Below are positions 1-53,974 of a DNA stretch of 64,000 nucleotides, in pieces. A program made the position numbers and the translations under genes. A model generated the notes under the pieces. It did no database searches and was not told where the DNA came from. It saw only the letters and a list, made by a program, of their open reading frames with translations. This DNA is from Nitrospirota bacterium (GTDB taxonomy: Bacteria; Nitrospirota; Thermodesulfovibrionia; UBA6902): positions 33,854-97,853 of the forward strand of contig JACQZF010000048.1 in the NCBI GenBank assembly GCA_016213945.1. The letters are read 5' to 3'. Position 1 is the stretch's first letter. Every line of letters starts with the position of its first letter.

Positions 1-2
1 CG

Positions 3-28430: not shown

Positions 28431-28470
28431 CCTCAGTGCCTCTGTGACCTCTGTGGTTGATTTATAAACT
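28431..28470 (+). repeat. Dispersed ~19-bp motif copy A (TTTCCTCAGTGCCTCTGTG + ACCTCTGTG), ending at the thiL start codon
   Basis: Matches copies B and C at 17/19 positions. Confidence 0.6.
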
Positions 28471-29454
28471 ATGCGGCTTTCTGAACTCGGCGAATTCGGC
28501 CTTATAAAAAGGATCAGGGCTAAATGCAAAAATGTTTCCCCTGAAATCATTGAAGGCATTGGCGACGACGCGGCAATTATAAAAACAGGGGCAAAAAAAA
28601 TTCTCGTCACCACTGACATGATGATTGAAGGGACCCATTTCGACCTTTCATTTACAACGTTCTCACAACTGGGCCACAAATTTTTAGCGGTAAACATCAG
28701 CGATATCTTTGCAATGGGCGGAAGCCCGGAATATTTTTTTATCAGCCTCGGTATTCCCCAAAAATGCAAAACTGAAGATATTGATGAACTGTATTCAGGA
28801 ATATTAAAGCTCGCAAAAAAATCCGGGGTTACAATTGCGGGCGGCGATACATGTTCATCAAAAGACGGACTTGTGCTAAGCGGAACTCTCATCGGGACCG
28901 CTGACAGAATAATTACACGCTCAGGAGCAAAAGCAGGAGACGGCATTTTCATCACGGACACAGTGGGGGATTCTGCAATGGGGCTTATACTTTTAAAAAG
29001 TCAGAAGTCAGAAGTCAGAAGTCAGAAGTTAAAAAACAAGAAGCTGAAATTTGGAACTCAAAACTCAAAACTCATCAAGAAACACCTGATGCCGGAGCCG
29101 TTCCCTATGAAAAACATGTCTAAGGTTACATCAATGATTGATATTAGCGACGGGCTTCTGATAGATTTAAGTCATATTTGTGACGAAAGCAAAGTCGGCG
29201 CTTTAATTTATACAGATAAGATCCCGGTATCAAAGGAGCTTGCAGAAGCTGCCGGGACATTGCGACTGAATCCTGTAAGTCTTGCGTTAAAAGGCGGGGA
29301 AGATTATGCGCTGCTTTTCACCGCACCGCAGGACATAAAGACAGATGCATTTAAAATCGGCGAGATTGTTAAGAGGGGCCGTTTTATAGTTGACGAAAAA
29401 GGGAGAAAGAGAAGATTTCAGGCGGAAGGATATGAACACTTTAAAAGAAAGTAG
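28471..29454 (+). CDS. thiL: Thiamine-monophosphate kinase, carrying an inserted low-complexity segment encoded by tandem 7/8-mers
   Basis: ThiL N-terminus (GEFGLIKRI...GDDAAII...) and PurM-like fold. The insert reads KSQKSEVRSQKLKNKKLKFGTQNSKL. Confidence 0.8.
   Translation: MRLSELGEFGLIKRIRAKCKNVSPEIIEGIGDDAAIIKTGAKKILVTTDMMIEGTHFDLSFTTFSQLGHKFLAVNISDIFAMGGSPEYFFISLGIPQKCKTEDIDELYSGILKLAKKSGVTIAGGDTCSSKDGLVLSGTLIGTADRIITRSGAKAGDGIFITDTVGDSAMGLILLKSQKSEVRSQKLKNKKLKFGTQNSKLIKKHLMPEPFPMKNMSKVTSMIDISDGLLIDLSHICDESKVGALIYTDKIPVSKELAEAAGTLRLNPVSLALKGGEDYALLFTAPQDIKTDAFKIGEIVKRGRFIVDEKGRKRRFQAEGYEHFKRK
29000..29078. repeat. 4 x heptamer GTCAGAA array plus 2-3 x octamer AACTCAAA array, in-frame inside thiL
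   Basis: gtcagaa x4 at 29000-29027; aactcaaa aactcaaa actcatca at 29056-29078. Confidence 0.85.
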
Positions 29455-29540
29455 ACAGAAGTTAGAAGTTAGTATAATGGTAGTTAAGATAAGACGTACT
29501 GCATTTATTCCCTTAACTACTTACTACCAACTACTCTCTA
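29455..29540. repeat. Intergenic element downstream of thiL with AGAAGTT x2 and degenerate AACTACT-type heptamers flanked by a short inverted repeat (GGTAGTTAAG / CTTAACTAC)
   Basis: It uses the same unit family as the thiL and cbiD arrays. Confidence 0.5.
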
Positions 29541-29541
29541 C

Positions 29542-30045
29542 TTGTTCCCAATTAACATGTCATACATAAGAGATAAATTCAGGGCCATATTCCAGGTGAA
29601 AGACACGCCGCACCGCATCGCTATAGCTTTTGCGCTCGGCGTGTTCATGGGTATTTCCCCTCTATTGGGACTTCACTATGTCGGGGGATTTTTTCTGGCG
29701 TGGCTTTTCCGCCTGAATAAACTCGTTACTCTTGTAGGAGTGAGCGTAAATAACCCCTGGACCATTGTTCCGCTGTCCTCCTTTTGTGTCTGGTTCGGGG
29801 CGAAATTAATCGGGATAAAACAGGTTTTGCCTGACGTGGACTGGGGCAGCATAACTTTCGGTAAAATTGCAGGCAGGCTGACGGACCTGAATAATTTAAT
29901 GGCTCTCGTCAAAGAATTAATGCCTCTAATAGCATCTTTTTTTGTCGGCGCCTCCATCGTCGGTGCAGTGTCAGCGGTAGCGGGCTATTTTATTGTTCAC
30001 AACCTGGTAACCAGATACCAGCAGAAAGCACATGACGCCGCATAA
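29542..30045 (+). CDS. DUF2062 membrane protein
   Basis: The sequence RIAIAFALGVFMGISPLLGLH... is typical of the family. Confidence 0.5.
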   Translation: MFPINMSYIRDKFRAIFQVKDTPHRIAIAFALGVFMGISPLLGLHYVGGFFLAWLFRLNKLVTLVGVSVNNPWTIVPLSSFCVWFGAKLIGIKQVLPDVDWGSITFGKIAGRLTDLNNLMALVKELMPLIASFFVGASIVGAVSAVAGYFIVHNLVTRYQQKAHDAA

Positions 30046-30871
30046 ATTGACCCGCACTCATGTCCTGCTTTTCATCGCGACTTTTATAACAACCACCCTT
30101 GCGGGCGCGCTGATGAAAAACGTCATACCGTGGGAGCACCCTGAAAAACTCTACCTCGGACTGCCGTTTTCACTCACGCTGCTCCTTATTTTAATGACAC
30201 ATGAATTATCGCATTACTTCATGTCTCTGAAGCACAACGTCTCAGCAACTCTTCCGTATTTCATCCCGGCCCCCTCCATAATCGGTACGTTTGGCGCTGT
30301 TATCAAAATGAAACCCCCGATACCCGACAGGCGGTCGCTTATTGACATAGGCGCCTCAGGCCCGATCGGCGGATTCATCATAGCAGTGATCGCTACGGTC
30401 ATAGGATTAAATTTTTCTGAAGTCAAACCGATGGGACAATTGCAGGAAGGACTTTCATTCGGCAGTTCAATTCTGTTTGATTTTTTATCCAGGATAGTTC
30501 TCAATATCGATCCTGACAAATACGACGTACTGCTCCATCCCGTTGCCTTTGCCGGCTGGATCGGCCTTCTGGTCACATCGTTGAACCTGCTTCCGATCGG
30601 CCAGCTTGACGGCGGCCATATTACTTACGCCCTGCTTGGAGACAAGCATGCGTGGATCTCAAAGGGCATGATCCCTGTATTGATTATACTCGGCATTTTG
30701 TTCTGGAGCGGATGGATCGTGTGGGCGGTGATAATGATCTTTTTAGGATACCGCCATCCGCCTGTGGTCTATCCCTATATTCAGCTTGACAGGAAAAGAA
30801 AGATCATCGGATGGATCACTTTTCTAATTTTTATTTTGACCTTCACTCCCGCGCCTGTGACGGGGATGTAG
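30032..30871 (+). CDS. Site-2-protease-type M50 zinc metallopeptidase
   Basis: HELSHY (HExxH) lies in a TM helix, with the NLLPIGQLDGGH (LDG) motif. Confidence 0.7.
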   Translation: MTPHKLTRTHVLLFIATFITTTLAGALMKNVIPWEHPEKLYLGLPFSLTLLLILMTHELSHYFMSLKHNVSATLPYFIPAPSIIGTFGAVIKMKPPIPDRRSLIDIGASGPIGGFIIAVIATVIGLNFSEVKPMGQLQEGLSFGSSILFDFLSRIVLNIDPDKYDVLLHPVAFAGWIGLLVTSLNLLPIGQLDGGHITYALLGDKHAWISKGMIPVLIILGILFWSGWIVWAVIMIFLGYRHPPVVYPYIQLDRKRKIIGWITFLIFILTFTPAPVTGM

Positions 30872-30880
30872 CTTTTTCGC

Positions 30881-32077
30881 TCAACTGCCCGCGATGATCT
30901 TCCCCTCGTATGACACAAGATGTGCGGTAACTGGGATGCCATCAATTATTGTTTCAGCATATTTCTTTGCATGAACGCAAACCTTTGGAAACAGTGACAA
31001 GTGACGGGTGACGGGTGACGAGTTAATAAAGTCAAAAATCTCTCTTGCAGTATTGAAGTCCTTTTCCTCAGGCACAGTAATTCCGAGCGAGTTTAAAAAC
31101 TCTACGGCCTTCTTCATATCAATCGCTCCGAATCTCACATGAGTCTGCGGAGTCGCCATTGCTATCTTGACCATCTTGGCCCATTGCGCGCAGAGATGGA
31201 TTTTTTTAAATCCATGTTTCTTTGCCTCTCGCAGTGAGTATTCGAGATAGTCGCCGATGAGGACATATGATTCTTCGGGAAGATGATATTCCGCCATGTG
31301 CGCCTTTTCAGATGTCCGTCCCGCAGAAAGGACTATCTCCTGAAGCCCTGCCGCCTTTGCCACCTTCATTGATGAAGTAATTGTAGCCGTCCACGCTTCG
31401 GCAGATACAGGTTTGACAATACCCGTTGTGCCGAGTATCGAGATGCCGCCCGTTATGCCGAGTCTCGCATTTAAAGTCTTCTTCGCCAGCTCCTCTCCGT
31501 GAGGCACGGAGATAGTGACCTCAAGAAGAGCAGAAGTGCAAAAATGCAGAAGCGCAGAAGATGCATTGGTTTCCGAGTAGCTTTTCTCATCTTCCGCTTT
31601 TGCACTTTTGCACTTTTGCTCTTTTGCACTATTATCCAGCAACGCTTCCCTCACTGCCTCTTCTATCATCTTTCTCGGTACAGGATTGATCGCCGCTTCA
31701 CCAACAGGAACCGGCAGTCCGGGCTTCGTGACAATACCAACGCCCTTGCCGCCTTTGATTAAAATCAGGGATTGGGGATTGGGGATTGGGGATTGCTCTG
31801 TGCTCTGAATTCTGACTTCCGCCGCTATTTCAGCGCCGTTGGTTATATCCGGGTCATCTCCCGCGTCCTTTATTACCGATGCAATTGCCGTAAATATTCC
31901 GTCCTGAACTCTGAATTCTGAATTCTGAATTCTGAATTTATGCCTGCTGCCGTCAGGGAAGGGAATGTCAACATCAGTGACGGGTGACGGGTGACGGGTG
32001 GCGAGCAAGGCTGCCGCTTTCGCAGCGGCCGCCGCGCATGCGCCTGTTGTATATCCTGAGCGTAAATTCTTTTTCAT
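30881..32077 (-). CDS. cbiD: Cobalt-precorrin-5B (C1)-methyltransferase CbiD, carrying at least six in-frame tandem-repeat insertions
   Basis: N-terminus LRSGYTTGACAAAAAKAA. The inserted peptides SPVTRHPSPVT, RIQNSEFRVQ, QSPIPNPQS and AKEQKCKSAKAEDEK are encoded by heptamer/octamer arrays. Confidence 0.75.
   Translation of the reverse strand: MKKNLRSGYTTGACAAAAAKAAALLATRHPSPVTDVDIPFPDGSRHKFRIQNSEFRVQDGIFTAIASVIKDAGDDPDITNGAEIAAEVRIQSTEQSPIPNPQSLILIKGGKGVGIVTKPGLPVPVGEAAINPVPRKMIEEAVREALLDNSAKEQKCKSAKAEDEKSYSETNASSALLHFCTSALLEVTISVPHGEELAKKTLNARLGITGGISILGTTGIVKPVSAEAWTATITSSMKVAKAAGLQEIVLSAGRTSEKAHMAEYHLPEESYVLIGDYLEYSLREAKKHGFKKIHLCAQWAKMVKIAMATPQTHVRFGAIDMKKAVEFLNSLGITVPEEKDFNTAREIFDFINSSPVTRHLSLFPKVCVHAKKYAETIIDGIPVTAHLVSYEGKIIAGS
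30994..31021. repeat. 4 x heptamer GTGACGG tandem array, in-frame inside cbiD
   Basis: gtgacaa gtgacgg gtgacgg gtgacga. Confidence 0.9.
31530..31561. repeat. 4 x octamer GCAGAAGN tandem array inside cbiD; inverted counterpart of the 31597-31628 array
   Basis: gcagaagt gcaaaaat gcagaagc gcagaaga. Confidence 0.85.
31597..31628. repeat. 4 x octamer CTTTTGCA tandem array inside cbiD
   Basis: cttttgca x2, cttttgct, cttttgca. An 18-bp segment TTGCTCTTTTGCACTATT recurs at 43947-43964. Confidence 0.85.
31768..31795. repeat. ~4 x heptamer GGATTGG tandem array inside cbiD
   Basis: gggattggggattggggattggggattg. Confidence 0.9.
31904..31938. repeat. 5 x heptamer CTGAATT tandem array inside cbiD
   Basis: ctgaact then ctgaatt x4. 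Confidence 0.9.
31977..32004. repeat. 4 x heptamer GTGACGG tandem array inside cbiD (same unit and orientation as 30994-31021)
   Basis: gtgacgg x3, then gtggcga. Confidence 0.9.
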
Positions 32078-32123
32078 TGATCAAAATTAAACCAGATAGA
32101 AAATGATAAAATCATCCGCAGAT

Positions 32124-32190
32124 TCCGCAGATTAAACACACGAATTAATATTTTTAAATCTGTGTAGCTCTGTGTAATCTGTGGATGGAG
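32124..32190. repeat. Intergenic cbiD-manC spacer packed with 9-10-mer tandem repeats (TCCGCAGAT x2; ATCTGTGTA / GCTCTGTGTA / ATCTGTGGA)
   Basis: Visible tandem units. Confidence 0.7.
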
Positions 32191-32228
32191 TTTTCTCCGT
32201 GCCTCTGTGGTTAATTTGTTTATAGCGG
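32191..32228 (+). repeat. Dispersed 19-bp motif copy B (TTTTCTCCGTGCCTCTGTG) in the cbiD/manC spacer
   Basis: Identical 19-mer to copy C. Confidence 0.65.
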
Positions 32229-32231
32229 AAT

Positions 32232-33662
32232 CTACTTCCTGCCGAAGTCGTCGTCAAAACGGACGATGTCGTCCTCTTCAAGATAATTGCCAAGTTGCAC
32301 TTCAATGAGATGAAGGGGAATCTTGCCGGGGTTTTCAAGGCGGTGCGGCATAGTTTTGGCAACATATGTTGACTGGTTTTCTTCCAGGAAGATAGTCTGA
32401 TCTCCGTTTACAATTTTTGCCGTGCCCTGGACCACTATCCAGTGTTCGCTTCTGTGATGGTGCATTTGCAGGGACAGTTTTGCCCCGGGATAAACAACGA
32501 TGCGTTTTATCTTGGTAGTCTTGTTTTCTTCCAGAATAGTGTAAGTCCCCCACGGCCTGTATACCGTTGTATGCGCCTTGTATTCCGGGCGTCCCTGCTT
32601 TTTCAGTTCCTGCACTATTGCTTTAACATTCTTGCTTTTTTCGAGGTCGGACACAAAAACCGTGTCAGGCGTTTCCACCACCACAATGTTTTCAATATCG
32701 TTTGTTACAACCAGCCGGTTATTGCCGCGTATCAAACAGTTCTTTGTGTTCTTGAGAATTACGTCACCTTCAACAACATTGTTGTTTGCCCCCTTTGGTA
32801 AAAAATCATAAAGAGATTTCCAGGAGCCGATGTCGCTCCACCCGAAATCAGACGGAAGCACAACGCCTTTTTTGGTTTTCTCCATTATGGCGTAATCAAT
32901 GGAGATATCCGGCAGGGACTGATATTTGCTCAGAGGGACAGAGGCCGTCTTTGAAACCATCCTTTGAATATTTTTCAAAAGGTCAGGGGCATATGTCCTG
33001 AATTCGTTTAAAAGCACAGATGCCTTGAAGGCAAACATCCCGCTGTTCCAGAAAAAGTTGCCTGCTTTGAGATAATGCTGTGCAGTTTTTTCATCGGGTT
33101 TCTCCACAAACCGTTTGATGGCAAAAGCGCCGTTTTGCACAGGTTTGGCTCCCTCTATATATCCGTAACCTGTTTCCGGATAGTCGGGTTTTATTCCAAA
33201 CGTTACGATGTAGTCCCTCTTTGCGAGTGATACAGCTGTCATCAATCTCTCCTGAAATCCTTCAACATCTTTAATCACATGATCAGAGGGGAATATCAAT
33301 ATCACCGCATCTTTTTCCGTCTTCAGAATATTCATGATCGCAAGCAGTATGGCTGGAGCTGTGTTGCGTCCGCAGGGCTCGGCAATGATTTTCCCTTTAG
33401 CCGGTACGCCGATTTCCTCAAGGTGCCGCGCTATTTCAAAAAAATGTTCATCTCCGCAGACAACCCGGATATCATCGGCCTCGAAAAGGGGGAACAATCT
33501 CTTGATCGTGCCTTGAATCAGCGAGTCGGACCCGACAAGGCTAACTAATTGTTTTGGGAAAAGCTCTCTGGAAACGGGCCATAATCTTGAGCCGCTGCCG
33601 CCGGCCAGCAGGACAGGGAATGTTTTAATTTCTTTTTTTGGCATGAAGTATTTCTCCCTCAC
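32232..33662 (-). CDS. manC: Bifunctional mannose-1-phosphate guanylyltransferase / mannose-6-phosphate isomerase
   Basis: Nucleotidyltransferase N-terminus (LLAGGSGSRLWP) and a C-terminal cupin. Confidence 0.85.
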   Translation of the reverse strand: MREKYFMPKKEIKTFPVLLAGGSGSRLWPVSRELFPKQLVSLVGSDSLIQGTIKRLFPLFEADDIRVVCGDEHFFEIARHLEEIGVPAKGKIIAEPCGRNTAPAILLAIMNILKTEKDAVILIFPSDHVIKDVEGFQERLMTAVSLAKRDYIVTFGIKPDYPETGYGYIEGAKPVQNGAFAIKRFVEKPDEKTAQHYLKAGNFFWNSGMFAFKASVLLNEFRTYAPDLLKNIQRMVSKTASVPLSKYQSLPDISIDYAIMEKTKKGVVLPSDFGWSDIGSWKSLYDFLPKGANNNVVEGDVILKNTKNCLIRGNNRLVVTNDIENIVVVETPDTVFVSDLEKSKNVKAIVQELKKQGRPEYKAHTTVYRPWGTYTILEENKTTKIKRIVVYPGAKLSLQMHHHRSEHWIVVQGTAKIVNGDQTIFLEENQSTYVAKTMPHRLENPGKIPLHLIEVQLGNYLEEDDIVRFDDDFGRK

Positions 33663-33763
33663 GAAGAAAAAGATAGTTTGGAAGTTTCAAATCCTTAAAA
33701 CATTATATTAGTTTATAATCGGGAAGGTCAACAAATTGTCATTACGAGGATAGAAATACCAAT

Positions 33764-34759
33764 CTACAAAAGCCCTGTTCCCCAGGGATGCGCATTTTTC
33801 CCAAGCTGGATGGTGTCTATTACTTTGTTGTTTTTCAGATCGATCACCGAAATACTGTTGTCGGCCTTGTTGGCGACATAGGCTTTCCTGGCCGCATGAT
33901 CTATCGCAATGCCTTTGGGCGATGCCCCGACCTTTATTGAGCCTGTCACAGTATCAGTGGTGGTATCAATTACTGCAACGCTGTTGTCCCCGGCGCAAGT
34001 AACGTAAATCCTGTTGGCAGACGCATCAACGCCTATATACCAGGGATTTAAGCCAACCGGTACCGTCCCTTCAACCTTATTGGCTGCCGTATCTATAATA
34101 GCAACGGCATTGTCATCGTGGCTTGTTACATACACTTTTTTGCTTGCGGAACTGTATGCCAGGCCCAAAGGTATTTTGCCGACGGGTATCTTTGTGATTT
34201 CCGTGTTGTCCCTGAGACTGATGACCGAAACATACTGGCCGCCTGAAATAACAATATATGCAAGTTTCTTATCAGGGACAAGCGCCGTTTCAAACGGCTC
34301 GATACCATCAAATTTTATTCTGCCTTTTATTGAATCATTTGTAATATCAATGATGGTTACGCTTTTATTTTCCTTGTCATCGGTATTTGTGACATAAGCG
34401 AGATTTGATTCAGGATCAATTGCCATATGCATCGGACCAATGTCTGTTTTTATGGTATTGACAACCTCATTGGTTGTCGTGTCAATCACAGATACTGAAC
34501 TGCTTTCGGCGCTTGAGTTAAGGACGTAAATCTTCTTTTTGTCAGGACTGACCGCAAGGCCCGCAGGCCATTTTCCAACCTGAATTGTTTCCAGTATCTG
34601 ATTAGTGGCGGTATCTATGACCGCTACATTTTCAGCCCCTGAATTCACTATATAAAGCCGTGGAGCTTTTGCAGAGCGGGTGACATCGCTTCCGCTTACT
34701 GTAACAGGAGGCATTGCAAGTGACAAGAACAGAAGCAGAAAGATTCGCAGTGATTTCAT
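33764..34759 (-). CDS. Secreted YVTN-family beta-propeller repeat protein
   Basis: Signal peptide, then ~40-aa repeats of the pattern ...YV.N...SV.VIDT.TN.V..TI.VG..P.G.A. Confidence 0.6.
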   Translation of the reverse strand: MKSLRIFLLLFLSLAMPPVTVSGSDVTRSAKAPRLYIVNSGAENVAVIDTATNQILETIQVGKWPAGLAVSPDKKKIYVLNSSAESSSVSVIDTTTNEVVNTIKTDIGPMHMAIDPESNLAYVTNTDDKENKSVTIIDITNDSIKGRIKFDGIEPFETALVPDKKLAYIVISGGQYVSVISLRDNTEITKIPVGKIPLGLAYSSASKKVYVTSHDDNAVAIIDTAANKVEGTVPVGLNPWYIGVDASANRIYVTCAGDNSVAVIDTTTDTVTGSIKVGASPKGIAIDHAARKAYVANKADNSISVIDLKNNKVIDTIQLGKNAHPWGTGLL

Positions 34760-34825
34760 TAGTTACCAATTCCTATAATTGCAATCAAAAGAAGTTATTG
34801 AAGCCCTGCTTCAGGGTAGAATATT

Positions 34826-35110
34826 TTATCCTTCCAACTTTCTCCAGCAATCAGCGCTGTCCAAAGATTCCTGCAGTATGTCCGTTAACTCCCGCTCGGC
34901 GGCCGGACTGCCGTTTTTCAAATCCAGAAGCAGCTTTTTAGAAAGTTCCACAATGCACATCGTATCCTTCTTTATCAATTGCACCCTGTAAATAAGGGTA
35001 TCCAGCAAATAAAATACCCTGAACAATATTACCGTATTGTCAATCTGCCGGATCTTTGCTTCAATTATGTCATATGCCGGCACTTTATCATCCGGGACTC
35101 GTGGATCCAT
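34826..35110 (-). CDS. Hypothetical protein (94 aa)
   Basis: ORF only. Confidence 0.25.
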   Translation of the reverse strand: MDPRVPDDKVPAYDIIEAKIRQIDNTVILFRVFYLLDTLIYRVQLIKKDTMCIVELSKKLLLDLKNGSPAAERELTDILQESLDSADCWRKLEG

Positions 35111-40500: not shown

Positions 40501-40579
40501 GTCATTCCCGCAGTCCTTTGAGCGGGAATCCAGTTTTTCAACAAGTTCTGGATACCCGATTACAGACTTCGGGCATGAC
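40501..40579. repeat. REP-like palindromic element copy 6 (after the cyclotransferase gene)
   Basis: GTCATTCCCGCAGTCCTTTGAGCGGGAATCC...GGATACCCGATTACAGACTTCGGGCATGAC. Confidence 0.65.
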
Positions 40580-43684: not shown

Positions 43685-43969
43685 TTAATTAAATTCCCCG
43701 TCCTGCTCTCCCCGTGTGTCTGCGTGGTATTCGGAACTGTCTGACGATTCCTTACCGCGCTGTTCAATGATAATGCCGAGCAATTCAGTCATGAATTCCT
43801 TGTCACTGGTCATTCTTGTTACTACACCGTCTCTTTCTTTTTTTGGCAATTCCTTTAACGCCCTCCAGAACACTTCTGGTACTGCTTCATTAATTGTCAT
43901 GGTCCCTGCCTCCTTATGAAAAGTACAAAAGTATAAAACAAAGAAATTAAAGTCCTTGCTCTTTTGCAC
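43685..43969 (-). CDS. Hypothetical small protein in the lexA-dinB operon (likely starts at the internal Met of MTINEAV)
   Basis: ORF between lexA and dinB. Confidence 0.35.
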   Translation of the reverse strand: MQKSKDFNFFVLYFCTFHKEAGTMTINEAVPEVFWRALKELPKKERDGVVTRMTSDKEFMTELLGIIIEQRGKESSDSSEYHADTRGEQDGEFN

Positions 43970-43988
43970 TATTGCGCTTCTGCACTTC

Positions 43989-44231
43989 TTATGTCTCCAC
44001 GCCCTCCAGTCTCCATATCAGTGACGTTGCGTCGAAAGCAAGCTCATACAGGGTCTTGCCGTCTGTCACGGAAAAATGGTGAACCAGGTTTTGTCCATCG
44101 GTTGTTTTCCACATGTATGTGATTTCCTTAACCTCAAAAGTCTTCCCCAACCATTTAAACTTGACCGGCCGTATCCTGTAACGCGGCCCGAATGAGACGA
44201 TGACGCTTATGTGTTCACTGATCTGCATCAC
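43989..44231 (-). CDS. Hypothetical small protein (80 aa), overlaps the lexA stop by 4 nt
   Basis: The ATGA-type overlap suggests translational coupling to lexA. Confidence 0.4.
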   Translation of the reverse strand: MMQISEHISVIVSFGPRYRIRPVKFKWLGKTFEVKEITYMWKTTDGQNLVHHFSVTDGKTLYELAFDATSLIWRLEGVET

Positions 44232-45764: not shown

Positions 45765-45784
45765 AAAATCACCTGCTTCCAACC

Positions 45785-46647: not shown

Positions 46648-46664
46648 CTACATCGGAGGAAATA

Positions 46665-48032: not shown

Positions 48033-48068
48033 ATGAAATTCTAAACCCATCCCCCCCTCAAAGAAAAA

Positions 48069-48090
48069 GGTCAGGCAGCAATGCCTGGCC
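48069..48090 (+). terminator. Possible stem-loop after norB (GGTCAGGCA-gcaa-TGCCTGGCC)
   Basis: Imperfect inverted repeat with a weak T tract. Confidence 0.25.
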
Positions 48091-48145
48091 TCCCCCTTCC
48101 TGTTTAGTAAAGCTATAAGCTAAAAGCTATTTTGTAGAATGCGGC

Positions 48146-48688
48146 CTAAAACCAGTACTCTGGATACTTCCTGTTTTTAGAGAGGTTATTTATAAGGAGA
48201 GCAATTATTAAAAGTATAAACGCGCCGAGTCCCGCAGGGATAAAGGCGTAAAGAAAGCCGAGGTCGTGTATCTTTTTGCCGCCGATAACGGCGATCAAAG
48301 CGGTTGCGCCGCCCGGCGGGTGAAGTGTCTTTGTCAGAAGCATGGCCGCAATGGCAAGCGATACAGCTAATGATGATGCCATCCAGATTGTGTCACCAAA
48401 GAGATTATAGCAGGCAACTCCTGCAAGGCCGGATATTACGTGACCGCCGATCAGATTTCTCGGCTGGGCGAGAGGGCTCTTTATCGCGCCATATGCAAGC
48501 ACTGCTGATGCGCCGAAGGAACCGATTAAAAGAGTTGAATCCCTCGGCTCGAAATAATTAATAGACAGGTACCCGCATATACCGATCCCCGCGGCAGAGC
48601 CGAGCCCTGACCAGAGTATTTCCGTGAATGAAACGCCGGGCGGGCTCTGCGCCCCGCCCTTCATCTTTGCGATGTATTTCCTGACCAT
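48146..48688 (-). CDS. HPP family membrane protein (family includes nitrite transporters)
   Basis: 180 aa, 4 TM, with Gly-rich HPP-type helices. Confidence 0.5.
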   Translation of the reverse strand: MVRKYIAKMKGGAQSPPGVSFTEILWSGLGSAAGIGICGYLSINYFEPRDSTLLIGSFGASAVLAYGAIKSPLAQPRNLIGGHVISGLAGVACYNLFGDTIWMASSLAVSLAIAAMLLTKTLHPPGGATALIAVIGGKKIHDLGFLYAFIPAGLGAFILLIIALLINNLSKNRKYPEYWF

Positions 48689-49323
48689 TATTGGGATCCC
48701 CCGATAGCCCTCACGATATCCGCGCGTGAGATAATCCCTATGAGCCTGTTTTCATCATCAACTACCGGAAGCCTCTTGATCCTTTGTTCATCCAGGATCC
48801 TTGCCGCTTCTTTTATGTCGTCATCAGCTTTTGCGGTAATTGCAGGAGAGGCCATGATGTCTTTAATTTTATTGCCTTCCCTGCGTTCAGGCAGAGGCTC
48901 TCCGAATATGTGTCTTAAGATATCTTTAAACGTGTGACCTTTCTTCATTCCGGCAGTGGACAGAATATCCGCTTCAGAGACAACGCCGACGACAATGTTT
49001 TCTTCATCTACAACTGGCAGCCCGCTTATGTTATGTTCGGAGAGAAGCCTCGCCGCCTCATGGAAATCATCCTCCTTCTTGACGGCGATTACGATTCTGG
49101 TCATTATTTCGCCGACGGTGGTCCTGGCAGCAAGCCTCTGCCGCGCATGTTTCAACGCTATTTCGTAAATCTTCCTCAGGTCTTCCTCTGTGACATCGAT
49201 ATAAGTTTTCATCTCACTGAGTGCGGCCCTTAAGTCTTCTTCAGAAATATTGCAGTATTTTTGCGAGTCGTCCATAACACTATTATCATTGAAGCAAAGC
49301 AATTTTCTTATGACGAAAATCAT
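48688..49323 (-). CDS. CBS-domain pair protein
   Basis: Two CBS motifs (…NISGLPVVDEE…, …IKRLPVVDDEN…). Confidence 0.7.
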   Translation of the reverse strand: MIFVIRKLLCFNDNSVMDDSQKYCNISEEDLRAALSEMKTYIDVTEEDLRKIYEIALKHARQRLAARTTVGEIMTRIVIAVKKEDDFHEAARLLSEHNISGLPVVDEENIVVGVVSEADILSTAGMKKGHTFKDILRHIFGEPLPERREGNKIKDIMASPAITAKADDDIKEAARILDEQRIKRLPVVDDENRLIGIISRADIVRAIGGSQ

Positions 49324-49375
49324 ATTTATGATTTAGCTCATGGCATCGCTTCTTCTGCAAATGGTATAAAAAAAC

Positions 49376-50344
49376 ATGAAGCTTACCGTTTACAGGAGAA
49401 CCACCCAGGCAGCGTTCATACTTTTCATACTCCTCATGCCGGTCTTAAACATCTTCCACTATGACGTGGATACGAAGGAGTTGATAGTCTTCGGCAATGT
49501 ATGGGGCCTCGGCCTGCCTGAAGAGTTTTACACTGACCGCAGTATCACAGGGTCGCTTCATGTAGCTTTGCAGTTTTTCCTCAAGGCAATACTGCCGTGG
49601 ATCTTAATTTTATCCGTATTCCCGCTTCTCGGCACGCTTACCGGGAGATTCTTCTGCGGATGGTTCTGCCCGGAGGGGGCAGTATTCGAGCTTTTCGATT
49701 TCTTCACGGTAAAGATCTTCGGCAGAAGAAGCCTGTTCACAAAAAAGCCCAATGACCCCGGAGAACCTGCAAGTAACCGGATGCCCTACATAATCCTTTC
49801 TCTATTCTGCATGATGGCCATTCCGCTTTTTACCGGTATTATGCTTACCGGTTATTTTGTGGCCCCCCGGACAGTGTGGGGGCAGATAATGAACTGGGAT
49901 TTTACATTTGGCGTGAAGGCAGGGATTATCGGGGTTTCCATATATCTGTTCATCTCTGCAATGATCGTCCGTCATGCACTGTGTAAATATGTATGCGGCG
50001 CGGGACTAATGCAAATGTTATTCGGATGGGCCAGCCCGGTTTCATTAAGAATAAAAGCAGACCCCGCAAAACTGGGCGCGTGCACGGATTGCAAGCAATG
50101 CGAAAAGGTATGCTTTATGAATGTAAAACCGAGGCTGTTCAGAAAAGATATCAATTGCGTAAATTGCGGCGCATGTATCTCTGCGTGCACTAAAGAGCTG
50201 GGCAAAGAGAAATGTGTATTCAGTTTTGCGCAATCGAGGCATTGCCCCCTGCCTTCAAAAGAATCCTTCAAGAAACAGGAAAACACTCCGCCGATTCTCA
50301 ACAATCCAATCAGAGATGATAACTGTGAAAAAACCTTCCGTTAA
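49376..50344 (+). CDS. NapH/CcoG/NosR-like membrane-bound polyferredoxin
   Basis: CGWFCPEGA motif, TM helices, and C-terminal 2x[4Fe-4S] (CTDCKQCEKVC / CVNCGACISAC). Confidence 0.6.
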   Translation: MKLTVYRRTTQAAFILFILLMPVLNIFHYDVDTKELIVFGNVWGLGLPEEFYTDRSITGSLHVALQFFLKAILPWILILSVFPLLGTLTGRFFCGWFCPEGAVFELFDFFTVKIFGRRSLFTKKPNDPGEPASNRMPYIILSLFCMMAIPLFTGIMLTGYFVAPRTVWGQIMNWDFTFGVKAGIIGVSIYLFISAMIVRHALCKYVCGAGLMQMLFGWASPVSLRIKADPAKLGACTDCKQCEKVCFMNVKPRLFRKDINCVNCGACISACTKELGKEKCVFSFAQSRHCPLPSKESFKKQENTPPILNNPIRDDNCEKTFR

Positions 50345-50506
50345 GATGCTCATTTTGCCGCATACTTTATAGAATCTTCCTTCACCTTGCAAATTTTCAT
50401 TAGCTTGATTTATGAATGCAGAATAATTTTTTATTAGACAACAGCCACGAACTTTGTACAAAATGAGCTTTATTTTATAAAACAGACGCAATAAGGAGGA
50501 CTTAAC

Positions 50507-50800
50507 ATGGCTTTCGTTTTCTTACGGTATAAGATTGAAAATTACAAAAAATGGAAAACCGCTTTTAATGACGCTTTTGAGATGCGGAAGAAGGGCGGCG
50601 AAAAAAGTTATAAAGTTTTCAGGAGCGCTGACAACCCGAATGAACTGGCTGTTCTCCTTGAATGGAGCAGTATCAGCAACGCCAGAAGGTTTATAAACTC
50701 AAAAGAGGTTCAGCAGTGCATGGCAAAAGCCGGGATAGTAGGAAAACGCGAAATTGCTTTTTTTAAAGAAGCTCCCCAGCCGGAACAATCAGGACATTAA
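50507..50800 (+). CDS. Small ABM/Dabb-like alpha+beta barrel protein (hypothetical)
   Basis: 97 aa; ...ELAVLLEWSSISNARRF... fits an ABM-like pattern. Confidence 0.3.
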   Translation: MAFVFLRYKIENYKKWKTAFNDAFEMRKKGGEKSYKVFRSADNPNELAVLLEWSSISNARRFINSKEVQQCMAKAGIVGKREIAFFKEAPQPEQSGH

Positions 50801-50834
50801 GACTCAGACATGTTACTGATTTTATAAATCTGCC

Positions 50835-51440
50835 TTACAATACGATGATAAAACTTTCTCTCCGGTGAAAGTCTGCCTGCGGCCCGGGATGGATCAACGC
50901 CCAGTAAGCCAATTTACCGTCCCTTGTTTTTATGACCGCGCAGATTCCGGCCTTCAATGCTTGATCTGCCCGGATGATCTTATTCAAGTCGACTTCAACA
51001 GAAAGCAGCAAGGCGCCGGACTTCCTCCGGACGCTGAAAGGGAGTGATGTAAAGGCATGTTCCTCATGCATCCCTTGTCGATAGGATATGAACCTATAGA
51101 CATTCCAGTGCCCGGCAGGAGAAAGATTGAATTCCCAATATTGATCGGATCTTTCAGCGCCGAGAAAGAACTCAAAACAGGTATCCCCCCAAAGAGCGTT
51201 TTTACGGCATGGCACATCTGCCGCCGCAGGGACCAGAAGGTCCGCAACGGGGCCATGACATGCATAGCTGATGGCAAGTGTATTGGAACGCCGGGCGGTT
51301 TTGCCGGTGATCTTTAATTTTGGCAGAAGGCCGGTTGATGAAAATGGCTTCAGGGAAAAGTGGTTAATCATTGCTGGATTATAACAAATTGCATCACAGG
51401 CCCAGATGATTATTTGGCAGTCAGACCGCGGGTATCGCAA
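50835..51440 (-). CDS. Hypothetical protein, possibly DOMON/CBM9-like
   Basis: ORF; only weak motif resemblance. Confidence 0.25.
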   Translation of the reverse strand: MRYPRSDCQIIIWACDAICYNPAMINHFSLKPFSSTGLLPKLKITGKTARRSNTLAISYACHGPVADLLVPAAADVPCRKNALWGDTCFEFFLGAERSDQYWEFNLSPAGHWNVYRFISYRQGMHEEHAFTSLPFSVRRKSGALLLSVEVDLNKIIRADQALKAGICAVIKTRDGKLAYWALIHPGPQADFHRRESFIIVL

Positions 51441-51507
51441 CCGGGCTTGCGCTTTGGCCCTGAAACAGATAGGATTAAATGAACGTTTGGTAAGTGAGGT
51501 TTGAGAG

Positions 51508-51810
51508 GTGGATTATTTTATTTCTCCGGTTTCCGATGAGGAGGTCAGGAGAGAAAAACATAAGGCTCGGGAGCTGCGGAAGACTCAGTGGTGGAAACGG
51601 AAATGCGCCGAAGGAAGGTGTTATTACTGTGGGCGGGAAGTGCCGCTTCATGAGCTGACCATGGACCATATTGTGCCTGTCATACGGGGAGGAAAATCAG
51701 AAAAGAACAACATTGTCCCCGCCTGCAAGGAATGCAATAACAAAAAGAAACACTCCCTTCCCATGGAATGGGAGGAATACCTGACACGGTTTAAGACGGA
51801 AGAAGACTGA
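51508..51810 (+). CDS. Small HNH endonuclease
   Basis: CYYCGREV...LTMDHIVP...NNIVPACKECNNKK. Confidence 0.75.
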   Translation: MDYFISPVSDEEVRREKHKARELRKTQWWKRKCAEGRCYYCGREVPLHELTMDHIVPVIRGGKSEKNNIVPACKECNNKKKHSLPMEWEEYLTRFKTEED

Positions 51811-52014
51811 CTGGTTCGGCATCATAGATGCGCCCTCTTTTATTTTCGACGCACTTACATTTTCTCCCTTGACTAACTGTTTGAGAAACTGTTATTCTGA
51901 AAACAGAATTTTAGAAGTTTTTGCGTACACAAAGGCCCCAAAGACTTTTTGACTTTGTGGCTTTTTTTAATGCCTTCTGAAATTTCAGTTTACAGAAAAG
52001 GAGGTAAAGCAATT

Positions 52015-52212
52015 ATGCAAGGAACTGTGAAATGGTTCAACGAAAGCAAAGGATACGGCTTTATTTCGTGTGAAGACGGAAGCGAAGCTTTTGTCCACCA
52101 CACGTCCATCCAGGGCAATGGTTTTAAGACACTTGCCGAAGGTGACAAGGTTAGCTTTGATACTGAGAAGAGCCCAAAAGGCCTCAAGGCTATCAACGTT
52201 GTAAAATTATAA
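52015..52212 (+). CDS. cspA: Cold-shock protein (CspA family)
   Basis: [17 protein letters not shown]...FVHHTSI, with RBS AAGGAGG 8 nt upstream. The longer ORF from 51949 is unlikely. Confidence 0.85.
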
Positions 52213-52330
52213 TTAACCGGAAAAGGCTCCCCTTTCTATAGCGGGGGCCTTTTCATTTGGGAAGCACTCAACCAACCGCACAAACAGCGTAATGCTGCTT
52301 TTGGGGAATGTATTTTTTTGCTAAAAAGAA

Positions 52331-53365
52331 TTAAAACTCGTCGCGGTCTGCTTCGGAAATAAACTCCTGATCACCGTTTCCGCTGTTTTGAGGTTGATGT
52401 TCAACCGGTAAGGTTTCCAATTCCCCTATCAATCGAGACATCTCTTCCTGCGTCACTGCGCGAAACGCCCTCGCCCTCAATTTTTTTACCCGCATTCCCC
52501 TTGCATACCATGCAAAGAATTTGCGGAAGTGCATAACGCCGACCTCTTCTCCGCGAAATGCCACGATCAGCGAAAGATGCTCTTTCATAGTTCGCGTAAT
52601 TTCAAAGACATCGGGCCTGCGCGGCTCCGCCCCGCTCTTCAAATACTCATCTGTCTCACGGAATATCCAGGGATTGCCGAGCGCGCCCCTTGCTATTGCC
52701 ACGCCGTCACAGCCTGTCTCATCCAACATTTTTTTAATGAGCGCCGGAGTGAATGCGTCCCCGCTTGCTATCACCGGTATTTGCAAGGACTTTTTTACTT
52801 CACGTATTATGTCGTAATCGACCGTTCCACTGTATCCCTGCGCCTTCGTCCTGCCGTGGATAGAAAGACAGCTCACGCCGGCATCCTGCGCGCGGAGCGC
52901 CGTATCAACTGCATTGATTGAAGAATCATCCCAGCCGGAACGTATCTTGACTGTGACGGGTAAACTGGTATTTTCAACAATTCCTCTCAGGAGTTTTTGT
53001 AACTTCCCGGGCTCTCTGAGAAGCCCGGCCCCTTTCCCTCCTGAGATAACTTTGCTTGCAGGACATGCGGCGTTAAAATCTATGATATCGAATTTGTATT
53101 CCAGGATAATATCCAGCGCCCTTTTGATTATTTCAGGATCAGCTCCGAGCATCTGCACCCCCAAAGGTTTGTCTTCCGCAGACGCAGAAAGCATTTTCAT
53201 GGTGTTCCTGCTTTTAAAAGCAAGGGCCGTGGCGCTGATCATCTCGGTAAATGCCAGTCCGCATCCGAAAGACCTGTTGATTAAACGGAAGGGCAGATCG
53301 CTAATGCCTGCCATAGGGGCAAGGACCAGAGGTGAAGCAAGCTGTAAATTTCCAATTGCAAGCAT
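52331..53365 (-). CDS. dus: tRNA-dihydrouridine synthase
   Basis: LVLAPMAGISDLPFR... and a TIM-barrel FMN site (CP...KV). Confidence 0.8.
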   Translation of the reverse strand: MLAIGNLQLASPLVLAPMAGISDLPFRLINRSFGCGLAFTEMISATALAFKSRNTMKMLSASAEDKPLGVQMLGADPEIIKRALDIILEYKFDIIDFNAACPASKVISGGKGAGLLREPGKLQKLLRGIVENTSLPVTVKIRSGWDDSSINAVDTALRAQDAGVSCLSIHGRTKAQGYSGTVDYDIIREVKKSLQIPVIASGDAFTPALIKKMLDETGCDGVAIARGALGNPWIFRETDEYLKSGAEPRRPDVFEITRTMKEHLSLIVAFRGEEVGVMHFRKFFAWYARGMRVKKLRARAFRAVTQEEMSRLIGELETLPVEHQPQNSGNGDQEFISEADRDEF

Positions 53366-53371
53366 AATGAT

Positions 53372-53974
53372 TTATTTAATTCTCACCCCGAATTTTTTGA
53401 GGCCCCCGGTCAGCGCGGATAGAGGAAGCCCCATCACGTTGAAAAAATCTCCCTCTATTTTCTCAATGAAAACCGACCCGCGTCCCTGAATCGCATATGC
53501 CCCTGCCTTATCCAGCGGTTCCTTTGATTTGACATATATCCGTATATCTTCGGCGCTGAGCTTCTTGAAATACACCTTTGTTTCCACTGAGCGGGATAAT
53601 ATTTTATCGCTGCCGGTATCCATGATTGTGAAGCCGGTTATTACTGAATGCGCCTTACCGTTCAGCCTACGCAGCATCTTCCCGGCTTCTTTTTCAGTAT
53701 GCGGCTTGCCTAACAATTTATTCTTGAAAACTATAAATGTGTCCGCCGCGATGATTATTGCATTTGAGTATTTATTTGCGACAGCTTCCGCCTTTTTGCG
53801 TGACAAGTGTCTTGCAAGCTCACGGGGTTTAAACAGCAGATCAAGGTCCTCCTCATAATCACTCGCCCGGACAGAAAATTTCAGACCTGTTAATTTCAGG
53901 ATTTCCTTTCTCCTCGGCGACGCTGATGCAAGTACTATTTTTCTCCGTGCCTCTGTGTCTCTGTGACTATTCAT
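53372..53974 (-). CDS. maf: Maf-like nucleoside triphosphate pyrophosphatase
   Basis: KIVLASASPRRKEIL... Its start overlaps the upstream gene stop as ATGA. The 19-bp dispersed motif covers the first codons. Confidence 0.8.
   Translation of the reverse strand: MNSHRDTEARRKIVLASASPRRKEILKLTGLKFSVRASDYEEDLDLLFKPRELARHLSRKKAEAVANKYSNAIIIAADTFIVFKNKLLGKPHTEKEAGKMLRRLNGKAHSVITGFTIMDTGSDKILSRSVETKVYFKKLSAEDIRIYVKSKEPLDKAGAYAIQGRGSVFIEKIEGDFFNVMGLPLSALTGGLKKFGVRIK
53938..53973 (+). repeat. Dispersed 19-bp motif copy C (TTTTCTCCGTGCCTCTGTG + TCTCTGTG), overlapping the first codons of maf on the opposite strand
   Basis: Identical 19-mer to copy B. Confidence 0.65.

Follow-up and report, generated by a model that had tools for sequence, protein, structure and literature searches.

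The DNA that we analyzed, referred to here as the window, is a 64-kb stretch of a Nitrospirae MAG in which one short motif recurs three times, always on the plus strand. The sequence TTTCTCCGTGCCTCTGTG occurs exactly at 32192-32209 (copy B) and 53940-53957 (copy C), and with two mismatches at 28429-28446 (copy A). Shuffling gave a chance expectation of 0.02 matches, and three matches were reached in 0 of 100 shuffles. Copies B and C are identical over 19 nt, TTTTCTCCGTGCCTCTGTG (32191-32209 and 53939-53957), so the dispersed 19-bp motif of the original prediction is real, with coordinates that were 1-4 nt off. Each copy is one arm made of two or three CTCYGTG units with 1-2-nt spacers (Table 1), and all three fit the consensus (T)TTTCTCYGTG-N-CTCYGTG-N-CTCYGTG-GTRAA by nhmmer and position weight matrix. 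An nhmmer model built from 170 arms matches only these copies in the window (E 3e-8, 8e-5 and 1e-4). The heptamer CTCTGTG is itself enriched, with 13 occurrences against 5.3 expected, 12 of them on the plus strand. The genome is rich in 7-8-nt arrays.

Table 1. Repeat arms and associated features in the window.
Feature	Position	Strand	Sequence or length	Evidence or context
Copy A partner, decayed purine (R) arm	28353..28373	+	ACCACTGAGACGCTGAGAAGA	alignment and fold
Copy A, pyrimidine (F) arm, three units	28427..28460	+	TTTT-CCTCAGTG-C-CTCTGTG-AC-CTCTGTG-GTTGA	nhmmer arm model, E 1e-4
Remnant inside cbiD	31796..31807	+	CTCTGTG-CTCTG, period 7	directly 3' of (GGGGATT)x4
Sister-family hairpin beside copy B	32114..32186	+	ATCCGCAGATTCCGCAGATT (32114-32133), loop, AATCTGTGTAGCTCTGTGTAATCTGTGGAT (32157-32186)	
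Copy B, solo F arm, two units	32191..32214	+	TTTT-CTCCGTG-C-CTCTGTG-GTTAA	manC-cbiD spacer
maf ORF with repeat-derived N-terminus	53372..53974	-	200 aa	
Copy C, solo F arm, three units	53938..53965	+	TTTTT-CTCCGTG-C-CTCTGTG-T-CTCTGTG	E 3e-8; inside maf ORF, opposite strand

Copy A, whose units read CTCAGTG-C-CTCTGTG-AC-CTCTGTG, is a decayed hairpin occupying the 130-nt lon-thiL spacer. Its F arm pairs with the decayed R arm, which begins 13 nt past the lon stop codon, across a 53-nt AT-rich loop (28374-28426), giving the order R-loop-F with the purine arm 5' and the pyrimidine arm 3'. The spacer folds at -24.4 kcal/mol (z -2.1), and the stem consists of these two arms. The F arm stops 10 nt short of the thiL ATG (28471) rather than ending at it, as first described. 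Copies B and C have no partner arm. Copy B lies 18 nt past the manC stop (32232), with the cbiD ATG (32077) 114 nt away, so the claim that all three copies mark gene 5' ends does not hold. It runs directly into GTTAATTT instead of the CTCTGTG units thought to follow each copy; the TCTGTG units stand upstream, in the adjoining but separate sister-family hairpin. The CGCAGAT/ATCTGCG units of that hairpin also bracket a GxxExxY gene (see below) in another locus, L084, and folds of this hairpin and the copy B spacer are strongly structured (z -3.7 and -4.8). Copy C lacks the GTRAA end.

No promoter or terminator consensus was found on the three window arms, and the orientation of flanking genes is unbiased across 120 related loci with crude gene calls, in line with the earlier view that the motif is not a simple promoter. 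A promoter or translation signal shared by thiL, cbiD and maf is very unlikely. The outer end GGTGA does resemble part of an extended Shine-Dalgarno sequence, and it lies 12-16 nt ahead of the next ATG in many loci, much as copy A precedes thiL. However, the three copies do not share one orientation with respect to the gene, copy B sits far from the cbiD ATG on the other strand, no arm has a sigma-70-like match, and copies abutting the stops of convergent genes are equally many. Indeed, the outer arm end generally lies 10-20 nt from the nearest gene end, be that a start or a stop, which removes the suggested preference for start codons. Rfam covariance models identified two tRNAs in the window and nothing else.

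Copy C has become part of a protein. As the original prediction had read from the opposite strand, its complement encodes HRDTEARR, in the context S-HRDTEARR-K and at residues 4-11 of Maf. Comparing Maf N-termini bore this out as an addition: 94 of 120 relatives begin MRKI[IV]LAS and have no N-terminal extension. The position of the ancestral maf ATG is now CGG, within the arm end CACGGAGAAAA, and the present ATG (53974-53972) shares bases with the TGA that ends the upstream HI0933-like gene. The solo arm is thus fused in frame to maf, with the ancestral ATG lost and the new N-terminus MNSHRDTEARRK-. We conclude that copy C displaced the original maf start codon, lengthening the protein by 9 residues at its N-terminus. 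Since the arms are free of stop codons in five of six frames, in-frame copies can become part of proteins. At present the window copies probably contribute secondary structure (RNA or DNA) in two spacers and the extra Maf peptide.

Copies A and B are each identical in L121, a relative with approximately 92% nucleotide identity to the window, and the whole 130-nt manC-cbiD block is missing from the more distant relative L122. In a third locus, L128, the corresponding maf spacer carries a different octamer hairpin. The missing block, the Maf extension, the L128 spacer and a set of Gemmatimonadota copies described below all show insertion-like behavior. These comparisons also bear on whether the copies are local simple-sequence repeats that arose by replication slippage, possibly as contingency (phase-variation) loci at gene starts. 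The units are indeed short and tandem, the genome abounds in 7-8-nt arrays, and the cbiD CTCTGTG array differs from that of L121 by a 45-nt in-frame indel (L121 has four units plus 27 further nt). Nevertheless, copies A and B keep the same unit number while the spacers differ at approximately 5% of positions, and the copies have two or three units each, with no long arrays. More than 120 species share one 32-nt arm down to its ends, which local origin could not have produced, and slippage leaves unexplained the fixed polarity and the bracketing of one gene family documented below. We regard this explanation as largely refuted.

We found the exact 18-mer in the genomes of at least 120 species (approximately 17 expected by chance), spread over at least 10 phyla, including Acidobacteriota, Proteobacteria, Planctomycetota, Gemmatimonadota, the PVC phyla, Bacteroidota, Desulfobacterota and Chloroflexota. 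At 97 of 119 loci it continues into an in-register third unit followed by GTGAA, and conservation is confined to a 32-nt arm composed of three direct octamers without an internal palindrome. The canonical form is TTCACC(CACRGAGN)3 - variable loop - (NCTCYGTG)3GGTGAA, and paired arms occur in the order purine-arm/loop/pyrimidine-arm 68 times versus 3 in reverse. Gene-less pairs enclose an unconserved loop of 3-120 nt and form stems of -35 to -65 kcal/mol in which the heptamer cores pair and the spacer bases are often unpaired. Solo arms, lacking a partner, make up about half of the copies. No functional theme was found among the neighboring genes. In one Gemmatimonadota MAG, three copies have common arms and loop. 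In Gemmatimonadota, GC-rich flanks followed by T-runs lengthen the stem; across the family, T enrichment after the arm is weak, with the Gemmatimonadota copies as an exception.

Such stems raise the prospect of a role at the RNA level, as intercistronic mRNA stabilizers, RNase III sites or factor-independent terminators of the kind proposed for REP/BIME and ERIC, in which case the stem would be under selection and any enclosed gene would merely sit inside. The stability of the stems fits this, as do the strongly structured copy B spacer, the extended Gemmatimonadota stems with their T-runs, and the placement of elements in intercistronic operon spacers (lon-thiL in the window, nuoJ-nuoK, and pdhA-pdhB in Geobacter). 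Solo arms, on the other hand, cannot form a stem, the T-run is absent from the family as a whole, none of the three window arms has a terminator score and the copy A stem is weak. Moreover, because any inverted repeat gives a stem, this reading fails to account for the 68:3 polarity and the sequence identity across phyla. In eight hairpin-bearing loci, Rfam gave only sub-threshold matches to miRNA precursors, as generic hairpins do. Taken together, these results make an RNA-level function quite improbable.

The arms also occur as the ends of a longer form, with terminal inverted repeats around a gene. This full-length element, of approximately 0.45 kb, consists of TTCACC-(CACRGAGN)x3, about 20 nt, the gene, 0-18 nt and (NCTCYGTG)x3-GGTGAA. 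The gene encodes a 123-aa GxxExxY protein (PF13366/TIGR04256), a PD-(D/E)XK nuclease with a Cas4/RecB-like fold and an intact D-ExK-QxxxY motif. All five GxxExxY genes in loci selected by the repeat (L030, L098, L080, L120 and L084) abut arms or stand between them. In the reciprocal test, we picked 80 metagenome loci by the GxxExxY protein alone; because these are relatives of a single Geobacteraceae query (52-64% identity), they do not sample the whole family at random. A significant inverted repeat brackets the gene in 57 of 78 loci. A purine array upstream together with a pyrimidine array downstream accompanies 47 of 74 genes, and the reverse arrangement 3, compared with background frequencies of 2.4% for a purine array upstream and 1% for a pyrimidine array downstream. 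The 47 elements lie in 43 distinct flank contexts and have a median length of 447 bp; three-unit arms are present in 34, and in 37 of 46 a gap of 0-18 nt separates the stop codon from the array. The window's own phylum contains a full example, CCACAGAGACACAGAGGCACAGAG-gene-TGAGTCTCTGTGCCTCTGTGG, between nuoJ and nuoK in a Nitrospirae MAG. Arm type follows the protein: elements sharing an arm type have slightly higher protein identity (61.8 versus 59.8%, permutation p<0.0005), and distant phage-borne homologs are flanked by inverted triple arrays of wholly different 12-13-nt units. We conclude that the motif is a member of a family of dispersed repeats that form hairpins and are tightly linked with a small nuclease gene, and that the full-length form, with arms tied to a GxxExxY gene, is new here.

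No GxxExxY homolog was detected in the 64-kb window by tblastn and profile search, and no GxxExxY gene in three related loci; the window copies are therefore gene-less derivatives and not full elements. Gene-less versions far outnumber gene-bearing ones, and tblastn detected no GxxExxY remnant in the loops of short hairpins. Nothing pointed to recent movement: an identical GxxExxY protein on 24 contigs always has the same context, a moxR-DUF58 site is occupied in four genomes that are 78-84% identical, and copies A and B are unchanged in L121. The ends of the 47 elements show no target-site duplication, having no direct repeat outside TTCAC...GTGAA, and the flanks are A-rich on the left and T-rich on the right without other pattern.

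Alternatively, a global regulator or nucleoid-associated protein (IHF/HU, or a domesticated GxxExxY protein acting as a DNA binder) could use the arms as arrays of chromosomal binding sites, with the window copies modulating expression or DNA architecture at lon-thiL, manC-cbiD and maf. The arm layout, with three regularly spaced units whose cores are conserved while the spacers vary freely, would suit such an array, and IHF/HU has been put forward for 21 pairs of TCTCCGTS[Y]x3 sites in Geobacter metallireducens (Aklujkar et al. 2009). The co-variation of arm type and protein described above also agrees with it, and the persistence of an intact GxxExxY gene at the same site over approximately 20% nucleotide divergence fits a host function. 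Against this stand the lack of a functional theme or orientation bias among neighboring genes, the copies within maf and cbiD coding sequence, an 8-nt period out of step with the DNA helical repeat, inter-arm distances ranging from 3 to 120 nt, and the presence of unrelated unit families in the same spacer of close relatives. We consider the binding-array explanation unlikely.

On balance, we favor the view that the three window copies are arms, without the gene, of palindromic elements from a widespread family, and we propose that the nuclease drove the spread of this family. The GxxExxY protein would recognize the triple-octamer arms, either in duplex form or extruded as a hairpin or cruciform, and thereby promote the copying or movement of arm-bounded DNA, much as transposases act on their terminal inverted repeats and RAYTs on their REPINs. 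Elements that lost the gene would become MITE-like hairpins, and further decay would leave solo arms. Thus, of the earlier suggestion of a small mobile or regulatory repeat, the repeat family and its nuclease gene are observed, and we infer both mobility and nuclease action on the arms. The GxxExxY gene could equally be cargo that targets pre-existing hairpins. More tentatively, and with some doubt, the arms may bound an autonomous mobile element of approximately 0.45 kb whose sole gene encodes the 123-aa Cas4/RecB-like nuclease acting on extruded arms, and whose gene-less hairpins have spread through spacers and coding sequences in at least 10 phyla. To our knowledge, such an element would be smaller than every known insertion sequence, and we know of no precedent for a lone 123-aa PD-(D/E)XK protein as a mobility enzyme. 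If this is correct, GxxExxY proteins would constitute a new class of mobility enzyme, and the autonomous element would account for one large group of hepta- and octanucleotide arrays.

The repeats also have practical consequences. Arms give rise to spurious ORFs, extend others and insert hypervariable peptides, as in maf, cbiD and thiL of the window. They probably also break assemblies, since many GxxExxY contigs are only 0.5-2 kb, and MAG pipelines should mask or annotate them. One metagenome scan contained at least 568 relatives of the GxxExxY/PF13366 family, which the PD-(D/E)XK census lists simply as 'unknown'. The proteins match Cas4 profiles at E 0.002-0.006 only, and they differ from Cas4/RecB-family nucleases in being half the size, lacking an Fe-S cluster domain and having no CRISPR association.

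Hepta- and octanucleotide tandem arrays have been catalogued since the 1990s without a mechanism; one large family of them is now tied to a specific gene, which gives a testable origin for short tandem-repeat elements. Cyanobacterial STRR/GGGGATT, Xanthomonas GGGAATC (Rehm et al. 2015, PMC4692102) and Beggiatoaceae TAACTGA (MacGregor 2015, PMC4679880) resemble the arms in having 7-8-nt units, typically in 2-6 copies, that are intergenic or sometimes intragenic in unrelated phyla, with some convergent inverted pairs. Those arrays, however, are pure direct repeats, often long and with undefined ends, whereas here a three-unit arm has TTCAC/GTGAA ends and an associated gene. Unlike contingency-locus repeats, copies A and B have constant unit numbers in L121, and the related cbiD array alone varies; unlike intrinsic terminators, the three arms give no terminator match.

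Work from 2000 by Ogata and colleagues reportedly describes Rickettsia palindromic elements as bacterial MITEs that enter coding sequence. These elements measure 100-150 bp, are restricted to one genus and do not consist of tandem octamers. They share with the present family short palindromic repeats in frame within conserved genes, here the maf N-terminus and hypervariable CbiD loops. MITEs share the terminal inverted repeats, but here no IS parent or target-site duplication was seen, and the loops are unconserved, without a tblastn match to GxxExxY.

The window motif belongs to a sequence family noted once before, as 'class 2' predicted global regulator binding sites (Gmet_I201-I221) of G. 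metallireducens GS-15 (Aklujkar et al. 2009, BMC Microbiol 9:109). These sites have three tandem TCTCCGTS[Y] repeats (the consensus in the figure legend), like copies A and C (copy B has two), are paired on opposite strands at variable distance, and lie in spacers 3' and 5' of unrelated genes; one unpaired 'vestigial' site is also listed. The window copies differ in being mostly unpaired, with one of them coding, and that paper describes class 2 sites in one genome and reports no gene family link, cross-phylum spread or fixed polarity. Another close parallel is the REPIN-RAYT system (Bertels and Rainey 2011, PMC3116915). There, the gene is an HUH/Y1 transposase and the REP is a small palindrome with a GTAG/CGTC head; here, it is a PD-(D/E)XK nuclease (PF13366/TIGR04256), the arm is three tandem octamers, and the gene is multi-copy with one arm sequence across many phyla. 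Both systems combine dispersed inverted hairpin doublets and decayed singlets with a small associated gene flanked by inverted repeats, and in both, retention is largely vertical with scant recent movement.

The 18-mer TTTCTCCGTGCCTCTGTG is found exactly at 32192-32209 and 53940-53957 of the window and with two mismatches at 28429-28446, always on the + strand; by chance, 0.02 such matches would be expected. The 18- to 19-nt repeat of the original prediction is therefore real, and so are its three copies (A, B and C), although they lie 1-4 nt from the positions first assigned to them. In each copy, CTCYGTG units with 1-2 nt between them are strung into a short array, which we call an arm. The heptamer CTCTGTG occurs 13 times in the window against 5.3 expected, with 12 of the 13 on the + strand, and a search with a model of the arm matched the three copies only. 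Copy A sits in the spacer between lon (end 28340) and thiL (ATG 28471), stopping 10 nt before the ATG and not exactly at it as had been proposed, while copy C lies within the 5' end of maf, a gene on the opposite strand. Copy B occupies the spacer that separates two minus-strand genes, manC (stop at 32232) and cbiD (ATG at 32077); it lacks the further CTCTGTG units that were thought to follow it and does not fit a description of three gene 5' ends. To take the motif for a gene-start signal was a misreading. Comparison of the three arms with promoter and terminator consensuses gave no match, and a promoter role is effectively excluded. The predicted fold of the 130-nt spacer around copy A pairs the copy, weakly (z -2.1), with a decayed partner arm, and copy B is a solo arm of two units that adjoins a hairpin of a sister family (z -3.7 and -4.8).

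Arms, arrays and other repeats located in the window
Feature	Position	Strand	Sequence or remark
Copy A	28427-28460	+	TTTT-CCTCAGTG-C-CTCTGTG-AC-CTCTGTG-GTTGA
Copy A partner arm	28353-28373		ACCACTGAGACGCTGAGAAGA
Copy B	32191-32214	+	TTTT-CTCCGTG-C-CTCTGTG-GTTAA
Sister-family hairpin	32114-32186		
Copy C	53938-53965	+	TTTTT-CTCCGTG-C-CTCTGTG-T-CTCTGTG
cbiD GTGACGG arrays	30993-31023, 31977-32000		
cbiD octamer hairpin	31524-31565, 31597-31630		AGAAGTGC x5 facing CTTTTGCA x4; adds ~40 aa
cbiD GGGGATT x4	31768-31795		directly abuts CTCTGTG array, inside Nitrospirae coding sequence
cbiD CTGAATT x5	31904-31938		
cbiD palindrome	31491-31513		TCTCCGTG-AG-GCACGGAGA
thiL in-frame arrays	28998-29074	+	AAGTCAG x4.6 and AACTCAA x2.9
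REP/REPIN-like palindromes	3697-3760, 7472-7506, 10144-10176, 14357-14390, 20416-20479, 40501-40533		GTCATTCC(C/G)GC...GC(C/G)GGAATGAC
AAAAGTRC/GYACTTTT hairpin	43919-43990		purine arm/loop/pyrimidine arm
AAAAGTRC/GYACTTTT solo arms	3767-3796, 7804-7827		pyrimidine arms
21-nt tandem repeat x3.3	57009-57077		GAAGATAGCAGAGGAAAAGGC, within ORF 56791-57114
Adjacent tRNA gene pair	62277-62429	-	Rfam 56 and 71 bits

The three copies belong to a family of arms that is distributed across phyla. When 185,579 species genomes were scanned, the exact 18-mer turned up in at least 120 stretches against about 17 expected by chance; these matches are not accidental. Hosts among the matches listed include Acidobacteriota, Beta-, Gamma- and Zetaproteobacteria, Planctomycetota, Gemmatimonadota, Verrucomicrobiota/Lentisphaerota/Chlamydiota, Bacteroidota, Desulfobacterota, Chloroflexota and KSB1. 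In 97 of 119 matches listed the 18-mer continues in register with one more unit, YCTCYGTG, and then GT(G/T)AA, and sequence conservation stops sharply beyond the 32-nt arm. A local slippage origin is effectively excluded. The family also has a fixed polarity. Among the matches listed, a reverse-complement partner array, (CACRGAG)n, within 90 nt lay upstream in 38 of 121 and downstream in 2, and a looser pattern gave 68 purine-arm/loop/pyrimidine-arm pairs versus 3 of opposite polarity. Telomerase-like repeat addition at double-strand breaks would explain this polarity, yet we reject it in view of the conserved outer ends TTCAC/GTGAA and the fixed number of three units per arm. DnaA-box, attC (R'/R''), sigma-54 and Chi-like readings were dropped since the arm end GGTGAA or GGTTAA misfits and none matches the 8-nt period.

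Paired arms are predicted to form stems of -35 to -65 kcal/mol in which the heptamer cores pair and the spacer bases are often unpaired. The loops, 3-120 nt long, are like the flanks unconserved between genomes. Rfam contains no family of this kind: at gathering thresholds the window gave only tRNAs, and eight hairpin loci searched at E<=1 gave generic hairpin (miRNA) noise. In one Gemmatimonadota MAG, arms and loop are common to three copies. Gene calls, which were crude, place the closest gene end, start or stop alike, some 10-20 nt from an arm's outer end, and flanking genes show nothing unusual in their orientation (49 co-directional, 11 convergent, 10 divergent). A test for replication-strand bias put solo arms weakly on the C-rich strand (mean skew -0.035, p=0.02) and gave no bias for doublets; the effect is too weak to interpret.

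All-versus-all clustering of ORFs from 120 repeat-selected loci gave as recurrent neighbours only a few orthologous Acidobacteria neighbourhoods. It was not this clustering but the inspection of purine-pyrimidine arm pairs with unusually long "loops" that revealed a gene, a 123-aa ORF lying between the arms in two unrelated loci, one from Geobacteraceae (L030) and one designated L098. Its product belongs to PF13366 (PDDEXK_3, E 6e-43) and TIGR04256 ("GxxExxY protein", E 1e-44), with a PD-(D/E)XK nuclease fold. In a census of PD-(D/E)XK proteins, PDDEXK_3 is entered as "unknown" and as having undergone lateral transfer several times, and we found no literature on the family that concerns repeats. 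The protein is without a match in PHROGs or, by sequence, in the PDB, and PADLOC reports only weak similarity to Cas4.

The association between arms and gene is tight and reciprocal. Searching the repeat-selected loci by tblastn yielded five GxxExxY genes, all of which abut or are bracketed by arms; in one (L084) these are CGCAGAT/ATCTGCG, the sister unit family that also lies beside copy B. Reciprocally, we picked 80 metagenome loci by protein alone from at least 568 relatives. A significant inverted repeat brackets the gene in 57 of 78, nearly always of the form TTCACC(RCRGAGN)3...(NCTCYGY)3GGTGAA. Purine arrays upstream combine with pyrimidine arrays downstream in 47 of 74 loci, versus 3 of 74 in the reverse arrangement, and background 160-nt windows carry such arrays in 2.4% (purine) and 1% (pyrimidine) of cases. 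These 47 elements represent 43 distinct flank contexts, have three-unit arms in 34 cases and measure a median of 447 bp from array to array. The start codon follows the purine array by a median of 20 nt, and in 37 of 46 only 0-18 nt separate the stop codon from the pyrimidine array that comes after it. Arms of the window's type, CTCNGTG, account for 33 of the protein-picked loci and CTCNGCG for 25, and a shared arm type goes with slightly greater similarity of the proteins (p<0.0005). Viral contigs carry rare, distant homologues (42% identity) with inverted triple arrays of wholly different 12-13-nt units; phage-borne genes on IMG/VR contigs (L210-L214) have AT-rich units such as TTTTACTTAAAA with conserved outer ends GCTTCGCTTGAAA, and in one exception (L212) the two sides appear direct, not inverted. 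Thus the architecture is conserved while its sequence changes with the protein.

In a Nitrospirae MAG the GxxExxY gene lies between nuoJ and nuoK with flanks CCACAGAGACACAGAGGCACAGAG and GTCTCTGTGCCTCTGTGG, and in a Leptospiraceae genome it lies between acyltransferase and PNP_UDP_1 genes with like arms. Four loci (L151 at 1474-1935, L182, L159 and L132), from genomes 78-84% identical, have the element in the gap that separates moxR, which encodes an AAA ATPase, from its DUF58 partner. The longest ORF at these loci extends across both arms, with N-terminal HRRDAEAPRED and C-terminal SASQRLCGE, and gene callers would therefore over-extend these proteins. Neither tblastn nor profile searches found the gene in the window or related loci; a weak profile match at window 1-141 (E 0.02) proved on inspection not to be a GxxExxY fragment.

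The products of cbiD and maf in the window match those of a Nitrospirae MAG at 100% identity, and genomes of Thermodesulfovibrionales type are the nearest relatives. L121, a relative with 87% CbiD identity, has copies A and B in identical form; the copy B block is wholly absent from a 68% relative, where the spacer is just 24 nt. The window and L121 share ~92% nucleotide identity, and their arrays are unchanged apart from two indels, one of 45 nt in frame in the cbiD arrays and one of 7 nt at 29450, which adjoins an AGAAGTT array. Genes tolerate in-frame arm copies, as maf does copy C. The Maf N-terminus is MRKI[IV]LAS in 94 of 120 relatives and MNSHRDTEA-RRKIVLAS in the window, where the start predicted from sequence is MNSHRDTEARRK. 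The ancestral ATG position is CGG, inside the arm end CACGGAGAAAA, and the new ATG overlaps the TGA of the upstream gene. In an 81% relative (L128), the HI0933-maf spacer (2911-3000) has at the copy C position a different octamer hairpin, (GGGYTCRA)3...(TTGRACCC)4; in sister lineages, different unit families have therefore colonised this one spacer.

The cbiD ORF (30881-32077, -) contains at least five in-frame short-repeat insertions whose peptides are translated 7-8-nt tandem arrays, and an alignment of 14 orthologues (356-444 aa) shows that these insertions lie at hypervariable loop positions. A perfect short palindrome in cbiD also resembles an arm, probably by a coincidence of codons because it encodes the invariant motif ISVPxGE. 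The window as a whole is rich in 7-8-nt arrays, some within genes, with GTGACGG, CTGAATT, GGGGATT and AAAAGTGC as further families. The CTCYGTG copies are therefore one instance of a wider phenomenon of this lineage. The thiL interior encodes a KSQKSEVRSQK...NSKLKTQ-type peptide, and a 21-nt repeat elsewhere probably encodes a 7-residue peptide repeat. A hairpin of the AAAAGTRC/GYACTTTT octamer family has the same polarity as the CTCYGTG family. A second dispersed family consists of REP/REPIN-like palindromes, two of them inverted doublets, of a sequence type common in groundwater and sediment MAGs.

As far as our literature search showed, the link between arm repeat and GxxExxY is first made here, and the repeat had been noted once before, in Geobacter. 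Searches with the repeat sequence as text and for heptanucleotide or tandem repeats in Nitrospirae found nothing. A study of Geobacter metallireducens describes "class 2 predicted global regulator binding sites" in 21 pairs, where each site has three tandem repeats of consensus TCTCCGTS[Y] and the two sites lie a variable distance apart on opposite strands; it suggests IHF/HU binding (Aklujkar et al. 2009, BMC Microbiol 9:109). These sites are the same family as the window's arms. Arms that serve as a binding array for a regulator or nucleoid protein, possibly GxxExxY itself, would accord with that suggestion, and we consider this unlikely but conceivable. A function of the arms as RNA hairpins is conceivable too, though less probable. 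Comparable architectures with other units are GTTGCTYN and MTYCTGA in Geobacter (Aklujkar et al. 2009), GGGAATC in Xanthomonas and GGGGATT in Nostoc (Rehm et al. 2015, PMC4692102), and TAACTGA in Beggiatoaceae (MacGregor 2015, PMC4679880); GGGGATT, a cyanobacterial STRR1-type heptamer, forms G-quadruplexes in vitro (Rehm et al. 2015). The mechanism is known for none of these arrays.

We favor a model in which the GxxExxY nuclease acts on the arms and so spreads arm-bounded DNA. Short hairpins and solo arms would then be gene-less derivatives of the full element, and the window copies would be relics. Several observations count against active mobility: no target-site duplications were found at the elements, the gene context is identical on 24 contigs, and the moxR-DUF58 site is filled in all four genomes. 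Identical GxxExxY proteins in different contexts, a sign of recent transposition, were looked for and not found. We regard the window repeat as of a REPIN/MITE-like kind, and because of the missing duplications, the constant context and the filled site, the arm system is closer to the vertically persistent REPIN-RAYT than to a jumping IS.
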